The translations under genes and the position numbers were made by a program. A DNA stretch of 64,000 nt from an uncultured Brachyspira sp. (lineage in GTDB: Bacteria > Spirochaetota > JAAYUW01), in the NCBI GenBank assembly GCA_964581895.1, contig CAZOPR010000002.1, positions 254,185-318,184 of the forward strand, given 5' to 3'. This document shows positions 4,143 through 51,275 of this stretch, in pieces; positions within the stretch are counted from its first letter, which is position 1; every line of letters begins with the position of its first letter. Under the pieces are notes generated by a model. That model did no database searches. It worked only from the letters and a program-made list of their open reading frames with translations, and had not been told where the DNA came from.

Positions 4143-5621
4143 TTGAAAGTTAAAAAATCATTAATTTTAATTATTTTTTGTTTTTCAATCTTCTTTATTT
4201 CTCAATCTATTTACACAAAAGTTTTTTATGAAGGTTCACAAAATTTATGGGGAAATGTATATAAAGAATATAACTTAGATAAAGTTAGTTATAGGAATAT
4301 GATATCTTATAAAATAAAAGAAAATGAAAAGGAATTTGACGAAACGACAGATTTGATAATACATTTTAATGAACAAAAAAAGGATGATTTTAGGATTATT
4401 GGCAATTATAGAATATCCGAGGCTCAATACATCCCTAACATTGATAATAAAGTATATGGGTTAGCCTCAGCAAACTTTTCACTTTCACATCACAGGATAA
4501 AATTACTTGCTGAAAAAGGTTCGCTTTTATATCCTGGTTCAAAGATAGATAATTTTACGATTTCTTTTTGGGTTTATCCTCAATCAAGTTATGAAGGGAA
4601 TGAACTTTTTTCTTATTATAGTCCAGCATACAACAAGAGTACAGATAAAATAGAATTTACCGGATTCAAAGCTTATTTGGTCGATAATATAGTTTATATA
4701 AAATTTGATAATATCTTCTTTATTAAAGGTATCCCTGTCAGTTTCGTCATAAATACTGGAGTTGAATTGGACATAGTAAAATGGCAGCATATCGCATTTA
4801 CATACAATAAGTATAATGGTAAATTTATCTGTTATAAAAACAATCACAAAACTGGAATATTTTATTTTACTGATTCTGGAAATGAAAAAGGAACAGTACT
4901 TGAAGGTATAATCCCAGAAGAACTAAGGACTTATCTTATAATCGGGCAAAGTTTTTTTGGAAATATAGATGAATTTATCCTAGAAAAAAAAGTAGAAGAT
5001 GAATTTGATCTGACACAGTATAAGCAAGAAGGCGGGTACCTTCTTTCTAAAGTGATAGATTTGAATTATTATTCTTCTAAGATATTAAAATTTGAAACTA
5101 AAAGTATTTGTGAAAACAAAACCTCAATAGTTGTTTATTATAGAATAATGGAAGATTTTTATGATGAAGAAGATCAGGCAATTCCATGGAAAATTTACGA
5201 CGAAAATAGTAAAATGACAGGTAGATACCTGCAATGGAAGATATTTTTTTATCCTTCTTATGAAGGTAAATTCACTCCACAACTACTCGATTTTATAATA
5301 ACAATTCTACCAAATTATCCACCTGCACCTCCAAACAACTTGAACTACAATCTTTTACCTAACTCACAGGTTGAGATTTTCTGGAATAAAAATATAGAAT
5401 CAGATGTTATAGGTTATTATGTATATTATGGGACAAAAAGTAAGCAGTATCTATGTAATGATGCAGTAGAAGGACAATCGCCAATTTTTACTGAAAAAAA
5501 TTCAATAATAATAACACTTAAACCAGCCACAGAGTATTTTGTCGCCGTAAAAGCTGTTGATAATGCTTATTATCCTCAGAAATCAGATTTTTCAAATGAA
5601 ATTGTCTTTCGAACAAAGTAA
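4143..5621 (+). CDS. Secreted protein with lectin/LamG-like region and C-terminal fibronectin type III-like domain
   Basis: N-terminal signal peptide; C-terminal FN3-like segment (PPAPPNNLNYN...YYVYYGT...TEYFVAVKAVDN); listed start is TTG, an in-frame ATG exists at 4116. Confidence 0.4.
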   Translation: MKVKKSLILIIFCFSIFFISQSIYTKVFYEGSQNLWGNVYKEYNLDKVSYRNMISYKIKENEKEFDETTDLIIHFNEQKKDDFRIIGNYRISEAQYIPNIDNKVYGLASANFSLSHHRIKLLAEKGSLLYPGSKIDNFTISFWVYPQSSYEGNELFSYYSPAYNKSTDKIEFTGFKAYLVDNIVYIKFDNIFFIKGIPVSFVINTGVELDIVKWQHIAFTYNKYNGKFICYKNNHKTGIFYFTDSGNEKGTVLEGIIPEELRTYLIIGQSFFGNIDEFILEKKVEDEFDLTQYKQEGGYLLSKVIDLNYYSSKILKFETKSICENKTSIVVYYRIMEDFYDEEDQAIPWKIYDENSKMTGRYLQWKIFFYPSYEGKFTPQLLDFIITILPNYPPAPPNNLNYNLLPNSQVEIFWNKNIESDVIGYYVYYGTKSKQYLCNDAVEGQSPIFTEKNSIIITLKPATEYFVAVKAVDNAYYPQKSDFSNEIVFRTK

Positions 5622-5745
5622 TTTTTATTCATTTATTTTTTAGTTGTAAAAACTTACCATTTATACATGTAAAAAAATTGTAAAAAGTTATATTTACTGG
5701 TATAGAAATCTTTTTAAAAAATACTATAATAATAGTAGTAGGTGC

Positions 5746-5800
5746 AAAAATTAAAAAATGTATAATATTTGAAGCGATAAGTGAGAAGAAAAAAAAATAG
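5746..5800. repeat. Direct repeat copy 1 (55 bp) upstream of the MNT-HEPN pair; contains TGTATAAT -10-like element
   Basis: aaaaattaaaaaatgtataatatttgaagcgataagtGagaagaaaaaaaaatag; identical to 6531-6585 except one base. Confidence 0.85.
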
Positions 5801-5823
5801 TATAAAAATAATTAAGGTAAAAT

Positions 5824-6135
5824 ATGGAAAAAGTAATTAAAATTATTAAAGATGAAATCGAAAAATGTGATTTAAAAGTTTTAAAAATAATATTATTTGG
5901 TTCAAGATCTAGAGGTGATTTCAGAGATGATAGCGATTGGGACTTCCTTATTATAATAAATAAGAATTTAGATAGATCCAAAAAATGGGATTTGATAATA
6001 AAAATAAAAAGAAGATTATCTTCTTTAAAAATTCCTAATGATATTATAATAAACTCCTTTGAAGAGTTTGAAGAGAGAAAAGATAATGTAGGTTATATTA
6101 CATATTATGCATTTAGAGAAGGCATATCTTTATGA
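5824..6135 (+). CDS. Minimal nucleotidyltransferase (MNT-type, antitoxin-like)
   Basis: Pol-beta superfamily NTase motif ILFGSRSRGDFRDDSDWDFLII (GS...DxD); 103 aa; stop overlaps next start (ATGA). Confidence 0.75.
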   Translation: MEKVIKIIKDEIEKCDLKVLKIILFGSRSRGDFRDDSDWDFLIIINKNLDRSKKWDLIIKIKRRLSSLKIPNDIIINSFEEFEERKDNVGYITYYAFREGISL

Positions 6136-6539
6136 ATGAACAAAGAGTTGAGCAGTGGATTATTCTTGCTGAAGGAGACTTAAAAACAGCAGAAGATGAA
6201 CTATCTATGTCAGAACCATTTACTAATTCAATTTGTTTTCATGCTCAGCAATTAGTTGAAAAATACTTGAAAGCATATCTAACCTTTTATGGAAAACCTT
6301 TTAGAAAAACTCATGACCTTACAGAGTTAATCAATGAATGCATTGAATTTAATAAAGACTTTCAGAACTTATTTGAATTAGATGTTGATAAATTAACACA
6401 ATATTCTATAGATTCGAGATACCCTGATGATTTTTATATTCCATCATTAGATGAAGCAAAAGAAGCTATAAATTTAGCTAAAGAAGCTAAGACTTTCATC
6501 ATTAAAAAATTTGAGGATAATGGATATAGAAAAAATTAA
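6132..6539 (+). CDS. HEPN domain protein (toxin-like partner of MNT)
   Basis: 135-aa helical protein directly coupled to MNT gene; R-x-x-H (FRKTHDL) and SRYPDD segments typical of HEPN partners. Confidence 0.65.
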   Translation: MNEQRVEQWIILAEGDLKTAEDELSMSEPFTNSICFHAQQLVEKYLKAYLTFYGKPFRKTHDLTELINECIEFNKDFQNLFELDVDKLTQYSIDSRYPDDFYIPSLDEAKEAINLAKEAKTFIIKKFEDNGYRKN

Positions 6540-6585
6540 AAAATGTATAATATTTGAAGCGATAAGTAAGAAGAAAAAAAAATAG
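6531..6585. repeat. Direct repeat copy 2 (55 bp) overlapping the HEPN stop and immediately upstream of folD
   Basis: Same sequence as 5746-5800 with a single G/A difference. Confidence 0.85.
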
Positions 6586-6598
6586 AAGGAAAGAATTT

Positions 6599-7426
6599 AT
6601 GATTGAGCTAAATGGAAACCCAGTTAAAAAGGATATTGAAGAAAAGTTATTGGAAATTATTAATAAGATAAATAGAAAAAAAGTAATAACAATTTTAGAA
6701 AATACTTATGATCCTTCAGCACAAACTTATGCAAAGGCAAAAAAAAAGCTTTTTGATAAATACAGTATTCCTTACAATACTATCCCTGTTTTACAAAACT
6801 ACGGTGAAAATGAAATAATAAATATTATAACTACATTAAATAAAGATGAGAAAGTTGCTGGTATATTTTTGGAACTTCCACTTCCAAATAATATCGATTC
6901 AAAAAAGATTGTAGATTATATAGAATACGAAAAAGATGTTGAAGGAGTTACAACAAAAGCTCTTGGCAAGCTTTTTTCAGGAGATGAAACAATAGTAGCC
7001 CCGACTGCTATGAGTATTATTAAGATTCTTGAATATTATAAAATACCAATCGCAAAAGCAGATGTCGTTGTAATAAATAGAAGTATGATCATAGGCAAAC
7101 CTTTAATTGCTCTTTTACTTAATAGAAATGCAACAGTAACTGTTTGTCATACTAAAACAGTTGATATCGATTCTCATATAGCGAGGGCTGATATTGTTGT
7201 AAGTGGAGTCGCAAAACCTCATTTTTTCGAAGGCAAAAGACTAAAAAAAAATTGTGTCATTATGGATGCATCTATAAATTTTGAAGGCGAAAAAATAGTT
7301 GGTGATTTTGATCCCTATCTTTTTCAAAATAGAGATGATATAAAATATACACCAACACCCAAAGGAGTTGGTGTTGTTACAAACTCTGTACTTCTTGAAA
7401 ATTGCGTTAAGCTACTTTTAAAATAA
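6599..7426 (+). CDS. folD: Bifunctional methylenetetrahydrofolate dehydrogenase/cyclohydrolase
   Basis: ELPLP, KDVEG, VVINRSMIIGKPLIALLLNRNATVTVCHTKT motifs; RBS GAAGGAAAG upstream of ATG. Confidence 0.9.
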   Translation: MIELNGNPVKKDIEEKLLEIINKINRKKVITILENTYDPSAQTYAKAKKKLFDKYSIPYNTIPVLQNYGENEIINIITTLNKDEKVAGIFLELPLPNNIDSKKIVDYIEYEKDVEGVTTKALGKLFSGDETIVAPTAMSIIKILEYYKIPIAKADVVVINRSMIIGKPLIALLLNRNATVTVCHTKTVDIDSHIARADIVVSGVAKPHFFEGKRLKKNCVIMDASINFEGEKIVGDFDPYLFQNRDDIKYTPTPKGVGVVTNSVLLENCVKLLLK

Positions 7427-7457: not shown

Positions 7458-8483
7458 ATGAGAGATTCACTGTTAAAAATATTCAATCTTGAAGAAAAGA
7501 AAAGCTATGCGATTATTGGAAACTCAAAAAATGCTGGGAAGACAACTGTATTAAATAAAATTGTAAAAGATATTTCAGATATAAATAAAAAATCAGCAGT
7601 TTCATCTATCGGCTGGGATGGCGAGGCTATCGATAGAGTTTATAAGACTGAGAAACCTGCTGTAATTATTCCAAGGGGATCTTTTGTCGCAACTTGTAAA
7701 GAACTTTTACCAATAAATTCATCACTTTTTAAGATTTATGAAGATAGCAAAATAGAAACAATACTTGGTTCAATCTATATAGTTGAAGCATTAAGTAGCA
7801 TGAAAGTAGAAATTGTTGGTCCAAGGGACTTAAAATCAACTAAAAGCCTTATAGATAAACTAAAAAAATACTGCGATTACATATTACTTGATGGAGCATT
7901 AAATAGAAGTACAAGTGCTTCTTCTATGATTACAGATGGTTTTATCCTTTCCATCTTATATAGCGGAAAAGAAAGTATATCAGAATTTGAAAAAAATATA
8001 AAATTGTTTTATGAAAAGTATAATAATTTTGAAATAATAGATAAAAAAGTTTTGAATATAGATTCATCAGAGTTAATAACTAAAAATTTTGTTGCAATTG
8101 GAAGAGATAAAGAAATAATATTTATGGATTTTCAAAATCCGATACAAAACGAAGAAAAACTATTAAAAGTTGAAAATAAAGCAGATTGGATATATCTTCC
8201 AGGAGCCCTTACAGATATTACAGTAGAAAAATTGTCAAATTTTTTTGTAGATATATCCATAATTATAGATGATTGGACTAAAAACTTCTTATCTCAAAGA
8301 ATTTTAACGATATTAAAAAATAGAAATTGCAAGATTTATTATCTATTTAATTCAAAACTTGTTGGAGTTACTATTTCGACATTTTCATATTCAAATTTTA
8401 TTAAATCACTACCTGATCAGTTAATTTCTATCGTAAAATCGATATTTAAAAATTATCCTGTTGTCGACCTTTTTTATAATTGA
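7458..8483 (+). CDS. Hypothetical protein with P-loop (Walker A-like) N-terminus
   Basis: GNSKNAGKTT near N-terminus; no further family recognised. Confidence 0.3.
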   Translation: MRDSLLKIFNLEEKKSYAIIGNSKNAGKTTVLNKIVKDISDINKKSAVSSIGWDGEAIDRVYKTEKPAVIIPRGSFVATCKELLPINSSLFKIYEDSKIETILGSIYIVEALSSMKVEIVGPRDLKSTKSLIDKLKKYCDYILLDGALNRSTSASSMITDGFILSILYSGKESISEFEKNIKLFYEKYNNFEIIDKKVLNIDSSELITKNFVAIGRDKEIIFMDFQNPIQNEEKLLKVENKADWIYLPGALTDITVEKLSNFFVDISIIIDDWTKNFLSQRILTILKNRNCKIYYLFNSKLVGVTISTFSYSNFIKSLPDQLISIVKSIFKNYPVVDLFYN

Positions 8484-29161: not shown

Positions 29162-29273
29162 GCTCGAAAAAGAACAAAAAAAAAGAACTAAAAGAAGAAA
29201 TAAAAAAAATTAAGTAAAGAAATAAAAAAAGATATAAAAAAAAGAAAAAAAAGAAATAAAAATAAGGAATTTT

Positions 29274-30305: not shown

Positions 30306-30535
30306 AATAATATGGCGAAATAAAAAAAATAAAAAGATAAAATAAAGAAAATACAAAGAAGATAAAAAAAATTCAATAAAAGTTAAAAAGAAAAAATAAA
30401 AAGAAAAAGTAAAAGAGAATAAAAAGAGAATAAAAAGAAAAAATAAAAAGAGAATAAAAAGAGAAAATAAAGCGAAAATAAAAAAATATTATAAAGATAA
30501 AATAGAATTAATAACCTTAAATAATAAAATCTATC
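30306..30535 (+). repeat. A/G-only low-complexity spacer with internal gagaataaaaa-type repeats
   Basis: About 230 bp almost devoid of C/T on + strand. Confidence 0.7.
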
Positions 30536-32817: not shown

Positions 32818-33408
32818 ATGAAAAAATTTTATTTTATATTTTTTGTTTTTATATTCATAATTTTAATTTCGTGTAATACTACAAATAGTTTTGTAAAGAC
32901 AAGTTGGGTAGAAAGACTAAATCAAAAAGTTATAGTTGAAAATGATTATTGTTATGCTGAATGTAGCTTTGTAGATAAAGAGGCAATGACAAAAAATATT
33001 GCATCAGAGGGGATGAATCCTTTTATCTATAGGGACCCAATAATTACAAAACAGGAATCTATATTATTTTCTCTTCTTATTATACCAAAGGTAAATTTTG
33101 AAATATATGCCCAAGAGGTTTACATTAAAACTGAAGCAGCTAGTTATCCAATACTTTTTAGTGAATATATTCTTGATCAAAATATGTATGAAAGTGAAAT
33201 TGATTCTGTAACAAAAAAGATGAAAGACTTTGTTAATAAATACTTTCTTTCAAAAAAAGAGATATATAAAAATGGTGAAAGAAAAGTTAGATTTTTATAT
33301 TCTATTGTAAATCTAGATTATAAAGGTGCTATGGTTAGGATACCTATTCATATAAATCAGGATAAAATTTCTGTATTAAATTTTATTTTCCCAGAAATAA
33401 AAAGATAA
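32818..33408 (+). CDS. Hypothetical lipoprotein
   Basis: Signal peptide with lipobox-like LISC. Confidence 0.35.
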   Translation: MKKFYFIFFVFIFIILISCNTTNSFVKTSWVERLNQKVIVENDYCYAECSFVDKEAMTKNIASEGMNPFIYRDPIITKQESILFSLLIIPKVNFEIYAQEVYIKTEAASYPILFSEYILDQNMYESEIDSVTKKMKDFVNKYFLSKKEIYKNGERKVRFLYSIVNLDYKGAMVRIPIHINQDKISVLNFIFPEIKR

Positions 33409-33527
33409 AATAAAAAAATAAAGTATAAAAGATAAAGACAATAGATAAAAAAATATTAAAAAAAAGCAAATAAAAATAAAATAAAAGTAAAAAAAATATA
33501 ACTAAGATAAAATAAAAACAAAAAAAT

Positions 33528-33839
33528 ATGCAAAAGGATAAAATCTTAAAGCGAATTGTAACTGAATGTTTCTGGGACTATGATATTGATGAAAATTATT
33601 TATCCAATGCTATAAAAAATGGTGGCTTAACCGAAAAAAGAAAAATAGCTGAAAAAATAATACTAAATATGAGACAACCTGTAGATGGGCTACTTCTATT
33701 TTCAAAGGAAGATTTAGCTAAAATATTTGAATCTTTTAATGAAAAAATCAGGAAAAAAGAAAAAGTATTACTTTTGGAAAATTGTCTTTTAGGAAAAAAT
33801 AATAAAATAGAAAAATATGAATGGAAAAAGTTGGGATAA
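33528..33839 (+). CDS. Small hypothetical protein, candidate partner of AbiEii-like NTase
   Basis: 103 aa; overlaps next gene by 23 nt in a different frame. Confidence 0.3.
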   Translation: MQKDKILKRIVTECFWDYDIDENYLSNAIKNGGLTEKRKIAEKIILNMRQPVDGLLLFSKEDLAKIFESFNEKIRKKEKVLLLENCLLGKNNKIEKYEWKKLG

Positions 33840-34476
33840 GATTTATCAACTTCAAGATAGATTATTAGATATCATTTTTTCAATAGATAATAGTTTTTAT
33901 CTTACTGGTGGAACAGCTCTACATAGATTTTATTATAATTTAAGAGTTTCTTACGATCTTGATTTTTTCTCTTCTTCAACTGAGACTTTTTATGATGAAA
34001 TAGTAAATATTTTACAAAAACTTTTAGATGAAAAAATAGAATATAAAATTATTTCGAAAGTAAAAGATTTTAGTCGTATTTTAATTGAAGATGATCTTCA
34101 AATTGATTTTGTAAATGATAGAGTTTATAGATATGGGAAAAGTAATATAATAAATAGGTTTAGAATAGATAATATCGAAAACATATTATCAAATAAGGTT
34201 TGTGCAATAATAGATAGAGACGAAGAAAAGGATTTTTTCGATTTATTTGCTATTGCAAAAAATCATTCATTTAATTGGGAAAATATTTTTAATATATGCA
34301 ATAAGAAACAGATTGTTGAAAAAGAAGTTTTTGTAGAAAGGATAAAAAGTTTTCCCCTAATATGGCTTGAAAAAATAAGATTGATACAACCTTTTGAAAT
34401 CCATAAAAGTGATATTGAAAAACTGATTGAAGATTCTATTTATGGTAAAGATAATTCGCTAATTATGAAAAAATAA
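33817..34476 (+). CDS. AbiEii/DUF1814-like nucleotidyltransferase (toxin-like)
   Basis: N-terminal motif LTGGTALHRFYYNLRVSYDLDFF (GGTAL ... RxSxDxD). Confidence 0.5.
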   Translation: MNGKSWDKIYQLQDRLLDIIFSIDNSFYLTGGTALHRFYYNLRVSYDLDFFSSSTETFYDEIVNILQKLLDEKIEYKIISKVKDFSRILIEDDLQIDFVNDRVYRYGKSNIINRFRIDNIENILSNKVCAIIDRDEEKDFFDLFAIAKNHSFNWENIFNICNKKQIVEKEVFVERIKSFPLIWLEKIRLIQPFEIHKSDIEKLIEDSIYGKDNSLIMKK

Positions 34477-35952: not shown

Positions 35953-37266
35953 ATGAAGAAAAAAATAAATAAAATACTTTTCATTCTCCTTTTAATAATT
36001 ATCATTGCTGCTATTAGTTTTTACTTTATTTATAAAAATAAGGTCGCAGCAAAAAAAAATATTGTTTTCACCACTGCTATAATCCAAAGTGGTAGCATCA
36101 CAAGTTCTGTAAGTGCATCTGGAAAGATAGAGCCAATCGATTCCTATCCTGTAATGGCTTCAATATCTGGTAAAATAGATAAGGTTCTTGTTGATTATAA
36201 TTCAAAAGTCAAAAAAGGGCAGATTTTAGCCATAATAAAACAGGATGATTATTTGTTTGCCTTGAAGCAGGCTCAGCTTAGTTACGATGAAGCAACTATA
36301 ACTTTATCAAATAAAGAGATGGATTATAATAATAATCTTGAACTTTATAAAAAAGGTTTTTTGACTTCTGCTGCACTAAAAGAATCTGAAAATAGTTATA
36401 AACTTGCACAGATAGCAGTTGAATCGGCTAAGGTTTCGCTTGAAAAGGCTAAAACAAATCTTGAAAATACATTATTAAAATCTCCAATAGATGGCTTCAT
36501 ACTTGAAAAAAATGTTGACGAAGGGGATTTTATAAGCACAAATATTTCTCAATCTGAACTTTTTGTAGTCTGTTCAGATCTTTCAAGACTGAAAATAACG
36601 GCAAATGTTGATGAATCAGATATTAGTCTTATAAAGGAAGGCCAAAAAGTCCAATTTACAGTTTTGGCTTATGATACAATGAGTTTTACAGGAGAAGTAA
36701 AACAGATAAGATTAAATTCAAATGAAAGCTCAAATGTTGTGACTTACACAGTTATAATAGAGACAAAAAATATAGATAATAAGCTACTTCCAGGGATGAC
36801 AGCTTCTATAGAATTTGTAAATCAACCAAGCGAGGGAGCATTTTTGGTTCCTCAAACATCAATATCACTAAAAGGTTTGGCGTTGCTTAAGAATATTGGA
36901 CCTTATACTGTTAATATCCCAAAAAATCAAGGGGTTAATCCTTCACAAAATCAAAATCCTTCACAAAATCAAAATCTTTTTAAAACACAAAATCCTTCTC
37001 AAAATCAAAATCCTACTCAAAATTTTAACAAAAGTTCTGATTCAAACCAACTTCAAAACAAGAATATAAAGATACTATGGGTTATAGATGAGACAAAAAA
37101 GATTGTATATCCAATTCCAGTAAAAACAGGAAATACAGATGGGAAAATGATTGAGGTCTTTTCTCCACTTTTGAAAGAAGGGATGAAAATAATTTCAAGC
37201 CTTATGACTAAAAATAAAACCAATAACCAGAACAATAATTTTGGCATGCCTCCAATTCGATTTTAG
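35953..37266 (+). CDS. Periplasmic adaptor (membrane fusion, HlyD/MacA-like) with C-terminal N/P/S/Q repeat
   Basis: N-terminal TM, coiled-coil hairpin, beta-barrel region; NPSQNQ tandem repeats near C-terminus. Confidence 0.7.
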   Translation: MKKKINKILFILLLIIIIAAISFYFIYKNKVAAKKNIVFTTAIIQSGSITSSVSASGKIEPIDSYPVMASISGKIDKVLVDYNSKVKKGQILAIIKQDDYLFALKQAQLSYDEATITLSNKEMDYNNNLELYKKGFLTSAALKESENSYKLAQIAVESAKVSLEKAKTNLENTLLKSPIDGFILEKNVDEGDFISTNISQSELFVVCSDLSRLKITANVDESDISLIKEGQKVQFTVLAYDTMSFTGEVKQIRLNSNESSNVVTYTVIIETKNIDNKLLPGMTASIEFVNQPSEGAFLVPQTSISLKGLALLKNIGPYTVNIPKNQGVNPSQNQNPSQNQNLFKTQNPSQNQNPTQNFNKSSDSNQLQNKNIKILWVIDETKKIVYPIPVKTGNTDGKMIEVFSPLLKEGMKIISSLMTKNKTNNQNNNFGMPPIRF

Positions 37267-45260: not shown

Positions 45261-45286
45261 AAAAGGAGGTAAATTATGAAAAAAAG

Positions 45287-45359
45287 TCGGAAAGAGGAGA
45301 TTTGAACTCCTGACCCCATGGTCCCGAACCATGTGCGCTACCATCTGCGCTACTTTCCG
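45287..45359 (-). tRNA. tRNA-Pro (anticodon CGG)
   Basis: 73-nt cloverleaf: acceptor CGGAAAG/CTTTCCG, D-arm GCGC-AGATGGTA-GCGC, anticodon arm CATGG-TTCGGGA-CCATG, T-arm AGGAG-TTCAAAT-CTCCT; CCA not encoded. Confidence 0.85.
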
Positions 45360-47545: not shown

Positions 47546-47579
47546 ATTTACCCTTTTTCTTTAATAAAAAATAACCTTT

Positions 47580-47680
47580 AATAAAATATAATTTTTATTA
47601 AAATATAATCTTTATTAAAATATAATCTTTATTAAAATATAATCTTTATTAAAATATAATCTTTATTAAAAAATATTTTA
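47580..47680. repeat. Tandem 17-bp repeat (attaaaatataatcttt), 4 exact plus 2 degenerate copies, in the uvrB upstream region
   Basis: Exact copies at 47597-47613, 47614-47630, 47631-47647, 47648-47664; each contains tataat. Confidence 0.85.
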
Positions 47681-47714
47681 AGTACTAAATTTAAATAATT
47701 TATTAAAAACTTGA

Positions 47715-50236: not shown

Positions 50237-50253
50237 TTTTTACTCCTATTGTA

Positions 50254-50460
50254 ATGTTATTTTTTCCTTTTTTCGTTTTTATTTTTTATTTTTATATTTT
50301 TATATTTTTTACTTTTCTTTATATTTTTTACTTTATTTTTATTTATTTCTTTTCTATTCTTTTTTTACTTTTTGCTTTTTTATTTTCTTTTTTTAATTTT
50401 TTTTATTTTTTGCTTTTATATTTTTTGTTTATTTTGTTTTTATTATTTCAGTTTGACTGA
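50254..50460 (-). repeat. Polypurine (A/G-only on minus strand) spacer between ABC ATPase and permease genes
   Basis: About 200 bp of T/C-only sequence on + strand. Confidence 0.7.
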
Positions 50461-51275
50461 TTAAAAATAGTCGGATTTGATATAGCAGCATTGAAGAAAA
50501 ATTCTAAATCTACTACCTCATTATTATTTTTTCTATTAAGAAGGTAGATTTTGCCAGTTGCTGACTGCTCAAAATATATAATATTTTCCTGATCATTTTG
50601 TTGATTTGATTCAGTAGCAATAGAATAATTTTGAGTAATATAGTCTAAAGAGTTATTAAAAATGATCTTGCCTTCGTGAAGTATTATAATTTTATCAAAA
50701 AGCTGAGACAGATCTCTTACCTGGTGTGTAGATATTATAAAAATTTGATTTTCAGTTAAACTTTCAGCTATTTTTTTTCTTACAGAAGTCTTTGAAGGGA
50801 TATCAAGACCATTTGTTGGTTCATCTAAAAGCATTATTTTAGCAAATGTTGAAAGGCCAAATGCAAGGTAAAACTTTTTCTTCTGACCAAATGAAAGAGA
50901 GATCAGGTTTTTATCAAGAGGGATTTCAAATTCTTTGCAGGTTTTGAAAAAGTATTCTTCATCAAAATTTGGGTAAAATTCACTGTAAAGTTTATAAAAT
51001 TTTTCACCATTGAAAGATGGCAAGTAAAAATTTTCAGGGAAAAAGAAGATATCTTTCAGCATTTCTGGATCTCTTTTTATAGATTTTTTACCCATAACTT
51101 CGATTTCGCCATTATTTAAATGAAGTAGTCCTGTTATACATTTTAATAATGTCGTTTTCCCTGCACCGTTTTTACCTAAGAGTCCATAGATATGTCCTTG
51201 CTCAAAATTTGCATAAAGATTATTGAAAAGCAGGTTTTTTGAATAACCAAAGACAAGATTTTTACATTCAATCAT
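50448..51275 (-). CDS. ABC transporter ATP-binding protein
   Basis: Walker A GKNGAGKTT, signature LSFGQKKK, Walker B MLLDEPTNGLD; AAGGAG 5 nt upstream of ATG 51275. Confidence 0.85.
   Translation of the reverse strand: MIECKNLVFGYSKNLLFNNLYANFEQGHIYGLLGKNGAGKTTLLKCITGLLHLNNGEIEVMGKKSIKRDPEMLKDIFFFPENFYLPSFNGEKFYKLYSEFYPNFDEEYFFKTCKEFEIPLDKNLISLSFGQKKKFYLAFGLSTFAKIMLLDEPTNGLDIPSKTSVRKKIAESLTENQIFIISTHQVRDLSQLFDKIIILHEGKIIFNNSLDYITQNYSIATESNQQNDQENIIYFEQSATGKIYLLNRKNNNEVVDLEFFFNAAISNPTIFNQSN

Follow-up and report, generated by a model that had tools for sequence, protein, structure and literature searches.

A two-gene MNT-HEPN cassette bracketed by a 55-nt direct repeat in the folD leader of an Exilispira-like spirochaete

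We analysed a 64-kb stretch of DNA (contig CAZOPR010000002.1; hereafter the window) from an Exilispira-like spirochaete with a G+C content of about 27%, in which two small genes, for a minimal nucleotidyltransferase (MNT) and a HEPN protein, are bracketed by a 55-nt direct repeat immediately upstream of folD. A direct repeat search placed the copies on the forward strand at 5746-5800 and 6531-6585, with identity at 54 of 55 positions and a single mismatch, G5783 in the left copy versus A6568 in the right. The repeat reads AAAAATTAAAAAATGTATAATATTTGAAGCGATAAGT[G/A]AGAAGAAAAAAAAATAG, and TGTATAAT is present in both copies. Its ungapped extension is blocked on either side by C5745 versus A6530 and by T5801 versus A6586. 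Following the left copy is an unrepeated 23-nt leader (5801-5823) that carries the MNT ribosome-binding site TAAGGTAAAAT before the ATG, and then the MNT gene (5824-6135) and the HEPN gene (6132-6539), all on the forward strand. The HEPN ATG (6132-6134) overlaps the MNT TGA (6133-6135) as ATGA. The right copy opens 9 nt before the end of the HEPN gene, its first nucleotides, AAA AAT TAA, being the last two HEPN codons and the stop codon. The next 13 nt (6586-6598), read as the folD ribosome-binding site and spacer AAGGAAAGAATTT, separate the right copy from the folD ATG at 6599. On the same strand, folD (6599-7426; PF02882, 3e-41; PF00763, 7.5e-20) encodes a bifunctional methylene-tetrahydrofolate dehydrogenase/cyclohydrolase, and the host gene upstream of the cassette (4143-5621; PF13385, PF00041) encodes a LamG/FN3-like secreted protein. 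A sequence-only reading that preceded this analysis had described a 55-bp repeat at exactly these coordinates with one base differing between its copies, had recognised both genes and had put the second copy directly upstream of folD, and each of these statements was borne out. It had further placed two translationally coupled genes between the copies; the coupling holds, but the genes are not strictly between the copies because the right one begins inside the HEPN gene.

The MNT protein (103 amino acids), the predicted antitoxin, matched PF18765 (5e-11) and PF01909 (7e-10) with scores of 43 and 39.7 bits against cut-offs of 26.9 and 21, and it contains the catalytic motif GS...DxD as G26-S27 and D38-W-D40. 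It also matched the PADLOC candidate system PDC-S09 (6.6e-12), and its weak matches among solved structures include the MntA antitoxins 5yep and 7ae2. The HEPN protein (135 amino acids), a classical HEPN-T and the predicted toxin, has PF05168 as its sole Pfam match (1.8e-26, 93 bits against a cut-off of 22), and its nearest solved structures are 1wol and 1ufb. In an alignment of 30 homologues T60-H61 was invariant and R96-Y97-P98 was conserved within an R96-Y-P-[DE] motif, R58 was often replaced by G, and no histidine was present 4-6 residues after R96, leaving no contiguous Rx4-6H motif. The predicted RNase site would instead use H61 together with R96. From the domain content the pair is predicted to be an MNT plus HEPN-T (PF05168) module that acts as a toxin-antitoxin or defence pair, in which MNT would neutralise HEPN, possibly by nucleotidylation, by analogy with HepT/MntA (PMC7641770). 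The similarity to the type VII HepT/MntA systems that have been studied by experiment lies in the MNT-then-HEPN gene order, the overlapping stop and start codons, the GS...DxD motif and the presence of MntA among the best structural matches. In contrast, the HEPN protein belongs to PF05168 rather than to DUF86/HepT and has no contiguous Rx4-6H motif, and MNT scored 35.4 bits against the NCBIfam MntA model NF047752, under its cut-off of 60. No experiment showing that this HEPN-T subgroup is toxic is known to us, and none was met in the HEPN-T literature cited here.

Archaea and thermophiles have HEPN-T/MNT modules in abundance, and these have been predicted to be toxin-antitoxin systems (Makarova 2009, PMC2701414; Anantharaman 2013, PMC3710099). 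In the AF0298-like subgroup an alternative RNase site may be formed by a histidine that lies N-terminal to the motif (PMC3710099). The pair in the window resembles these modules in its strong PF05168 match, in the position of H61 N-terminal to an R96 motif whose histidine is replaced, as in the AF0298-like group, and in having homologues within restriction-modification (R-M) operons, as PMC3710099 notes. It differs from them in that it has no evident promoter of its own and sits in the leader of a housekeeping gene. Among homologous HEPN genes in the loci that we fetched, 80 of 90 had an MNT gene directly upstream. Identity to the HEPN protein of the window reaches just about 71% in its closest homologues, which lie in unrelated contexts; this supports a foreign origin of the module. 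One homologue, for example, follows an aminotransferase gene (L013), and two tandem pairs lie between mlaD and a phosphoribosyltransferase gene (L016). In a further group of loci (L020-L023, e.g. L020:626-7529) an MNT-HEPN pair, with a HEPN protein 67% identical to that of the window, lies between an N6/N4 methyltransferase gene (mod) and a ResIII helicase gene (res) of a type III-like R-M operon. At either end of the pair the stop codon of one gene touches or overlaps the start codon of the next, and four samples share this layout.

Three relatives of other species, L025 (Exilispira sp. GCA_024653445.1), L001 and L002, provided cassette-free versions of this site. Their gene order is amidohydrolase (reverse strand), LamG/FN3 (forward), folD (forward), a gene for a 341-amino-acid protein, YitT and NfeD, and in all three the LamG gene is followed directly by folD, with gaps of 249, about 185 and 36 nt, respectively. 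FolD is 86% identical to that of the window in L025, 78% in L001 and 69% in L002; the flanking DNA of L025 is about 86% identical, and the next FolD cluster in the protein database stands at 86%, with nothing closer there. The blastn alignment between L025 and the window breaks off at the LamG stop codon and restarts at the folD start. Since three relatives without the cassette keep the synteny and five samples of the species itself carry it, the arrangement reflects an insertion and not an assembly artefact. That the MNT-HEPN pair is an insertion relative to the three related species is thus well supported by these comparisons, and the insert amounts to 730-840 nt with two open reading frames (ORFs). 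The sequence-only reading had proposed insertion with duplication of the target; its first half stands on the three cassette-free relatives, but duplication is unproven, the 55-mer being no more similar to the diverged leaders of the relatives than shuffled sequence. Its suggested comparison with relatives likewise confirmed that the LamG gene adjoins folD in all three, but their leaders are too diverged to display a single repeat copy. The gene for the 341-amino-acid protein (7458-8483), immediately downstream of folD in the window, gave no significant Pfam match and occupies the same position in all three related species; it is possibly part of a folD operon.

The five independent same-species samples were the window, L010 and L109 (independent JGI contigs), L027/L028 (L027 being an ENA contig) and the Logan contigs L011/L012 (k = 31). 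The cassette was present in all five with 99.4-100% identity and an identical arrangement, and from its presence in every sample we conclude that it was gained once, before the sampled strains diverged. In L010 the cassette and folD are accompanied by 19 nt of the flank on the LamG side and by both repeat copies, which show the same G/A difference. L109 extends from the LamG 3′ end across the left copy and MNT to HEPN; L027 extends from a partial MNT gene across HEPN and the right copy to folD and about 6 kb beyond it. The Logan contigs, both 100% identical to the window, stop at 5775 (L012) and start at 6538 (L011), so that each break comes exactly 30 nt (k-1) into the stretch of 37 nt over which the two copies agree perfectly. 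This is the behaviour that a de Bruijn graph predicts, so the breakpoints indicate a genuine repeat. The left copy of L109 has A at the G/A site, as do all right copies, so G5783 is derived, and the copies probably had the same sequence when they arose. The right copy of L027 reads TGAATAAT with an extra T, and L028 has A8 in place of A9. A variant, GAAGATAAAA, is common to the left copy of L109 and the right copy of L027 and occurs in neither copy of the window. It gives a hint of exchange between the copies, a weak one because the A-run is unstable, as the A8 of L028 illustrates. This run, at the 3′ end of the repeat (6568-6585 in the window), is hypervariable among near-identical strains (A9, A8, A-T-A8 and A-T-A4-G-A3) and lies in the leader, shortly before the ribosome-binding site of folD or MNT, in the window, L027, L028 and L109.

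Within the window the 55-mer occurred twice at up to 3 mismatches, and 100 dinucleotide shuffles contained none; neither a third copy nor a related repeat family was found in the 64 kb, which disfavours a dispersed repeat. Folding of the repeat gave 0 to -0.1 kcal/mol on both strands (z 0.4), no better than shuffled sequence, and revealed neither an inverted-repeat core nor a hairpin. Because secondary structure is absent from both strands the repeat is not attC-like, and attC or another structured site was ruled out. A riboswitch, small RNA or tRNA fragment in the repeat or leader was likewise ruled out, as Rfam had no match at 5600-6650 either at the gathering score or at E ≤ 1. There is no tRNA or tmRNA target at the insertion site, the sole tRNA gene of the window lying 39 kb away at 45286-45359. 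The region 5700-6620 gave no phage, plasmid or viral match (blastn, both collections). An exact 23-mer of the repeat found 0 matches in metagenome and viral contig collections, a null that says little about the rest of the genome because the collection evidently lacks this species. Recombinases were sought by Pfam on window ORFs of at least 150 amino acids and in precomputed and Logan gene calls around the site. Neither the ORFs with a Pfam match nor these gene calls included an integrase, transposase or resolvase domain, in line with the earlier statement that no recombinase is nearby; the negative covers ORFs with a Pfam match, and about a dozen ORFs of at least 150 amino acids matched nothing. 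A second cassette or an array was also absent from the window.

The repeat had additionally been credited with a promoter-like element, a reading that we consider weak. Both copies do hold a perfect TATAAT, but TG abuts it instead of forming TGnTATAAT, neither copy has a -35 element and a consensus promoter scan made no call in either, while promoter-like calls in this AT-rich stretch stand at chance level (8 found, 8.6 expected). The same scan found a site at 5703-5730 on the forward strand (TAGAAA-N16-TATAAT) that is present in single copy upstream of the repeat. The stretch that contains it is the only part of the intergenic region that is significantly conserved in L025, where it reads GTATAGAAATCTT...ATACTAGAAT; its local alignment score of 47 exceeded the null maximum of 42, and none of 300 shuffles reached it. 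By this conservation the 5703-5730 site is likely the native folD promoter, and it probably now drives MNT, HEPN and folD. No terminator-like site was found between LamG and folD (5500-6700), and the cassette and folD are therefore likely co-transcribed. The folD-proximal repeat copy varies between strains, which disfavours strong constraint on it. From this variation, together with the lack of promoter calls in the copies, we infer that the repeat is a transcribed leader and that MNT-HEPN-folD is read from the upstream site.

We also scanned 80 metagenomic loci with homologous HEPN genes for repeats that bracket MNT-HEPN, a bracketing repeat being defined by an ungapped score of at least 24. 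Such a repeat was found in 13 of the 61 cassettes with enough flanking sequence and in none of 99 neighbouring pseudo-cassettes (p = 1.5e-6), nor at any of 242 sliding positions in the window or 175 in the loci of the relatives. Roughly 1 in 5 of the homologous cassettes in this small survey and 1 in 10 of the solitary ones are bracketed in this way. Seven of the 13 lie in tandem arrays and six are solitary, namely those of the window, L059, L099, L100, L106 and L108. In four arrays (L046:933-3080, L102:1632-3090, L016:3590-5141 and L077:1-1332) adjacent units are 90-100% identical over about 80-160 nt at the junction, which consists of the HEPN 3′ end and the MNT 5′ start, whereas the interiors of the units are just about 55-60% identical. 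This mosaic points to exchange of cassettes, or to gene conversion, at the conserved ends. Near-identical repeats also occur in the arrays of L047, where they contain a terminator-like hairpin, and L069, where a coding-like 3′ gene fragment follows each of two cassettes.

The solitary cases differ in the DNA that is repeated. At L099 (1230-2494) a 32-nt repeat (31/32 identical) takes in the final 13 nt of a tRNA-Ala gene and brackets a 1.1-kb insert at the tRNA 3′ end; no integrase was found in this insert despite the integrase-type signature. The 47-nt repeat of L100 contains a terminator-like hairpin after the upstream gene, the 35-nt repeat of L106 lies within a host ORF, and in L059 (43 nt) and L108 (71 nt) similarity runs past the core repeat with indels. 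The bracketing repeats of L059, L100, L106, L108, L047 and L069 span 35-93 nt. The repeats are demonstrably host DNA in L099 and L106, and that of L100 looks like the terminator of the upstream gene. These repeats support target duplication as a recurring process in the cassette family.

Our tentative preference for the window is that a horizontally acquired MNT-HEPN module was inserted before folD with duplication of 55 nt of target, an explanation that we regard as quite possible, short of probable. The module would have entered the folD 5′ leader in the ancestor of the species, without a linked mobility gene. The inserted DNA would be 5801-6530 (730 nt), comprising the 23-nt leader, MNT and HEPN minus its last codons, and insertion would have duplicated 55 nt of the local folD leader at the joints. 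One copy would then precede the cassette, and the other would supply the last two HEPN codons and the stop codon and precede the folD ribosome-binding site. Lacking an evident promoter or terminator of its own, the cassette would most likely be read as one MNT-HEPN-folD transcript from 5703-5730. We infer that the 55-mer was a host target rather than imported, and that joining was staggered. The tetranucleotide ATAG is common to the ends of the insert and the repeat, and it yielded no consistent microhomology model.

Insertion with long target duplication was reportedly described for R-M units already in 2000, by Nobusato et al. (Gene 259:99). Furuta, Abe & Kobayashi (2010, NAR, PMC2853133) recognised such R-M insertions by highly identical repeats longer than 30 bp that are not multi-copy elements of the genome, an insert shorter than 20 kb with no mobility gene inside or beside it, a related genome that lacks the unit but keeps both flanks, and the alignment of both copies with one single-copy sequence at that empty site. 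According to the same study the repeats often span the start or stop of a neighbouring gene, so that the target gene stays intact, and the authors suspected DNA breakage by the R-M enzymes as the cause. The window offers empty-site relatives, a 55-nt repeat identical at 54 of 55 positions and a small insert without a Pfam match to a mobility gene; it thus resembles the R-M cases as a small addictive unit that is flanked by near-identical repeats of more than 30 bp and is absent from a related genome. It differs from them in its cargo, MNT-HEPN, which is without the DNA-cleaving activity invoked there as the common cause, and in that a single-copy target at the empty site, the key criterion there, is not demonstrated here. 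If the target-duplication reading is true, the pathway would be the same as that of R-M units and would therefore be independent of a DNA-cleaving cargo.

Several results weigh against target duplication of this kind or against the functional assignment that accompanies it. No single-copy 55-mer was found at an empty site. In MAFFT and local alignments the 55-mer matched the folD leaders of L025, L001 and L002 no better than shuffles did, and such a site is not displayable because the intergenic DNA of the relatives is too diverged, the closest empty-site genome being about 86% identical in genes. The uniqueness of the 55-mer rests on 64 kb of genome. Cassette and flanks do not differ in G+C content (0.26 versus 0.28), so the insert shows no compositional anomaly. 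The curated models give a toxin-antitoxin function no support, with MntA below its cut-off and the HEPN protein matching no NCBIfam or PADLOC model. Finally, with 23 nt between the left copy and the MNT ATG and with the first 9 nt of the right copy inside the HEPN gene, the geometry of the window is nearer to that of tandem-array junctions than to that of the other solitary cassettes. Its period is 785 nt and its repeat overlaps the HEPN 3′ end; periods within arrays are 712-776 nt, while those of the other solitary cassettes are 1010-1171 nt, with repeats 47-254 nt from the genes.

This geometry bears most directly on an explanation in which the repeat was borne by the cassette. Here an 840-nt piece (5746-6585) would have been cut from a donor MNT-HEPN tandem array with a 785-nt period, and illegitimate recombination would have joined it between ...GGTGC and AAGGAAAG... 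without any target duplication; the cassette-free and 55-mer-free junction would read ...GTAGGTGC joined to AAGGAAAGAATTTATG. We consider this somewhat unlikely, and still the main competitor of target duplication. A fragment of that length and period would carry exactly such a 55-nt terminal redundancy starting inside the HEPN 3′ end, and it would account for the left copy beginning with AAAAATTAA, the same as the HEPN end. The array periods and the overlap of the repeat with the HEPN stop suit the window better than do the solitary cases, the arrays of L046, L102, L016 and L077 keep near-identical junctions around diverged interiors, and the 55-mer has no significant similarity to the folD leaders of the relatives. 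On the other hand, the window contains no array or second cassette, and the arrays with conserved junctions have spacers of about 0-20 nt rather than 69 nt. Comparison of the 55-mer and leader with the flanks of 84 homologous cassettes remained at background, the best score being 42 (L016) versus 41 and 38 for unrelated windows. In qualitative terms the A/G-rich 3′ half of the 55-mer also resembles the intergenic style of its own genome.

A site-specific origin, in which the copies are attL and attR of an integrase encoded elsewhere or a CIME-like remnant whose recombinase was deleted while the addictive pair survived, seems to us improbable. Direct repeats of tens of base pairs around foreign DNA are a normal outcome of integration, and the L099 cassette, with part of a tRNA-Ala gene in its repeat, provides a case of that type. 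At folD, by contrast, neither a tRNA nor a tmRNA gene offers a target, the Pfam-matching ORFs of the window include no recombinase domain, and the 55-mer contains neither an inverted-repeat core nor any other structure. The insert is confined to two ORFs, one end lying at most 23 nt from the MNT start and the other among the final HEPN codons, with no trace of a larger element, and its arrangement is identical across the sampled strains. We find it highly improbable that the cassette landed by chance between pre-existing copies of a dispersed or tandem repeat, or that the 55 nt were copied by later gene conversion, readings that would leave the repeat unconnected with the insertion itself. Tandem repeats and A-rich, low-complexity repeats are numerous between the genes of this genome, one class in Furuta et al. 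(PMC2853133) consists of "chance insertions between repeated sequences", and GAAGATAAAA is shared by the L109 left and L027 right copies. Set against this, the window has two copies only at up to 3 mismatches and no related family, the repeat boundaries match the cassette ends, and none of the 242 sliding control positions gave a comparable bracket. An assembly artefact could come from an overlap at k = 55 or from the collapse of a population variant; de Bruijn assemblies commonly use 55 as k, and the Logan contigs do break at the repeat. The position of those breaks, exactly 30 nt (k-1) into the 37-mer that the copies share, is however the one that a real repeat predicts, the copies differ at one base and so are not an exact k-mer overlap, and the independent JGI assemblies L010 and L109 cross the junctions; the probability left to an artefact is negligible, and we regard it as ruled out.

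Comparison with other kinds of gene unit places the locus further. Integron gene cassettes with attC sites, among them the toxin-antitoxin cassettes of chromosomal superintegrons, are promoterless, hold one or two genes and have similar repeats of about 55-130 nt at their ends, the 3′ one of which often contains the stop codon of the ORF. The MNT-HEPN cassette shares with them the two-gene layout without an evident promoter, the repeat boundaries and the stop codon within the 3′ repeat, but the 55-mer forms no hairpin, and the window contains no integron integrase, attI or array. Chromosomal toxin-antitoxin modules lodged among housekeeping genes are exemplified, in the parts of Fraikin et al. 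(2020, PMC7167474) drawn on here, by relA-mazEF-mazG, dinB-yafNO-yafP and ccdO157 between folA and apaH. The window resembles these in having a toxin-antitoxin-like pair in an intergenic site that is undisturbed in relatives, and differs in its long flanking duplications, which those parts of PMC7167474 do not report for the lodged modules. We regard the locus as a fresh instance of known things, an MNT-HEPN module and an insertion with long flanking direct repeats.

Elsewhere in the window an ORF at 33817-34476 is a homologue of AbiEii-type nucleotidyltransferase toxins (PF08843, 2e-13) and is preceded by an ORF of 196 amino acids without a Pfam match. The gap between these ORFs contains A-rich low-complexity DNA (33399-33544). 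The region 32818-34476 is possibly a second module of the toxin-antitoxin or abortive-infection kind. Tandem repeats are present at 47558-47693, with about 8 units of 17 nt, and within a HlyD-like ORF (36937-37023), with a unit of 18 nt. Long intergenic low-complexity tracts that are A-rich on one strand and T-rich on the other, including 29167-29268, 30318-30513 and 50239-50461, are typical of this genome.

The locus is a clean minimal footprint, consisting of two ORFs, no mobility gene and a near-intact scar beside a gene of an essential pathway. It bears on how chromosomal toxin-antitoxin modules enter genomes, a question on which the mechanisms of integration "remain unelucidated" in the words of the part of PMC7167474 consulted. 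Were the repeat imported with the cassette, this would be an ordinary illegitimate insertion of little further interest. Under target duplication, the tens-of-bp repeats would allow gene conversion, excision or tandem amplification, which would also account for arrays with near-identical junctions and diverged interiors. A wider proposal, in which MNT-HEPN cassettes, and perhaps toxin-antitoxin modules as a whole, would spread as two genes and nothing more through recombinase-independent, host-mediated long target duplication, appears doubtful to us at present. For the spirochaete itself, a foreign toxin-like pair within the folD transcription unit could couple expression of the pair to one-carbon metabolism. 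If the repeats are target duplications, the pathway described for R-M units would extend to RNA-targeting addiction modules, which would point to a route provided by host recombination or repair and not encoded by the cargo.

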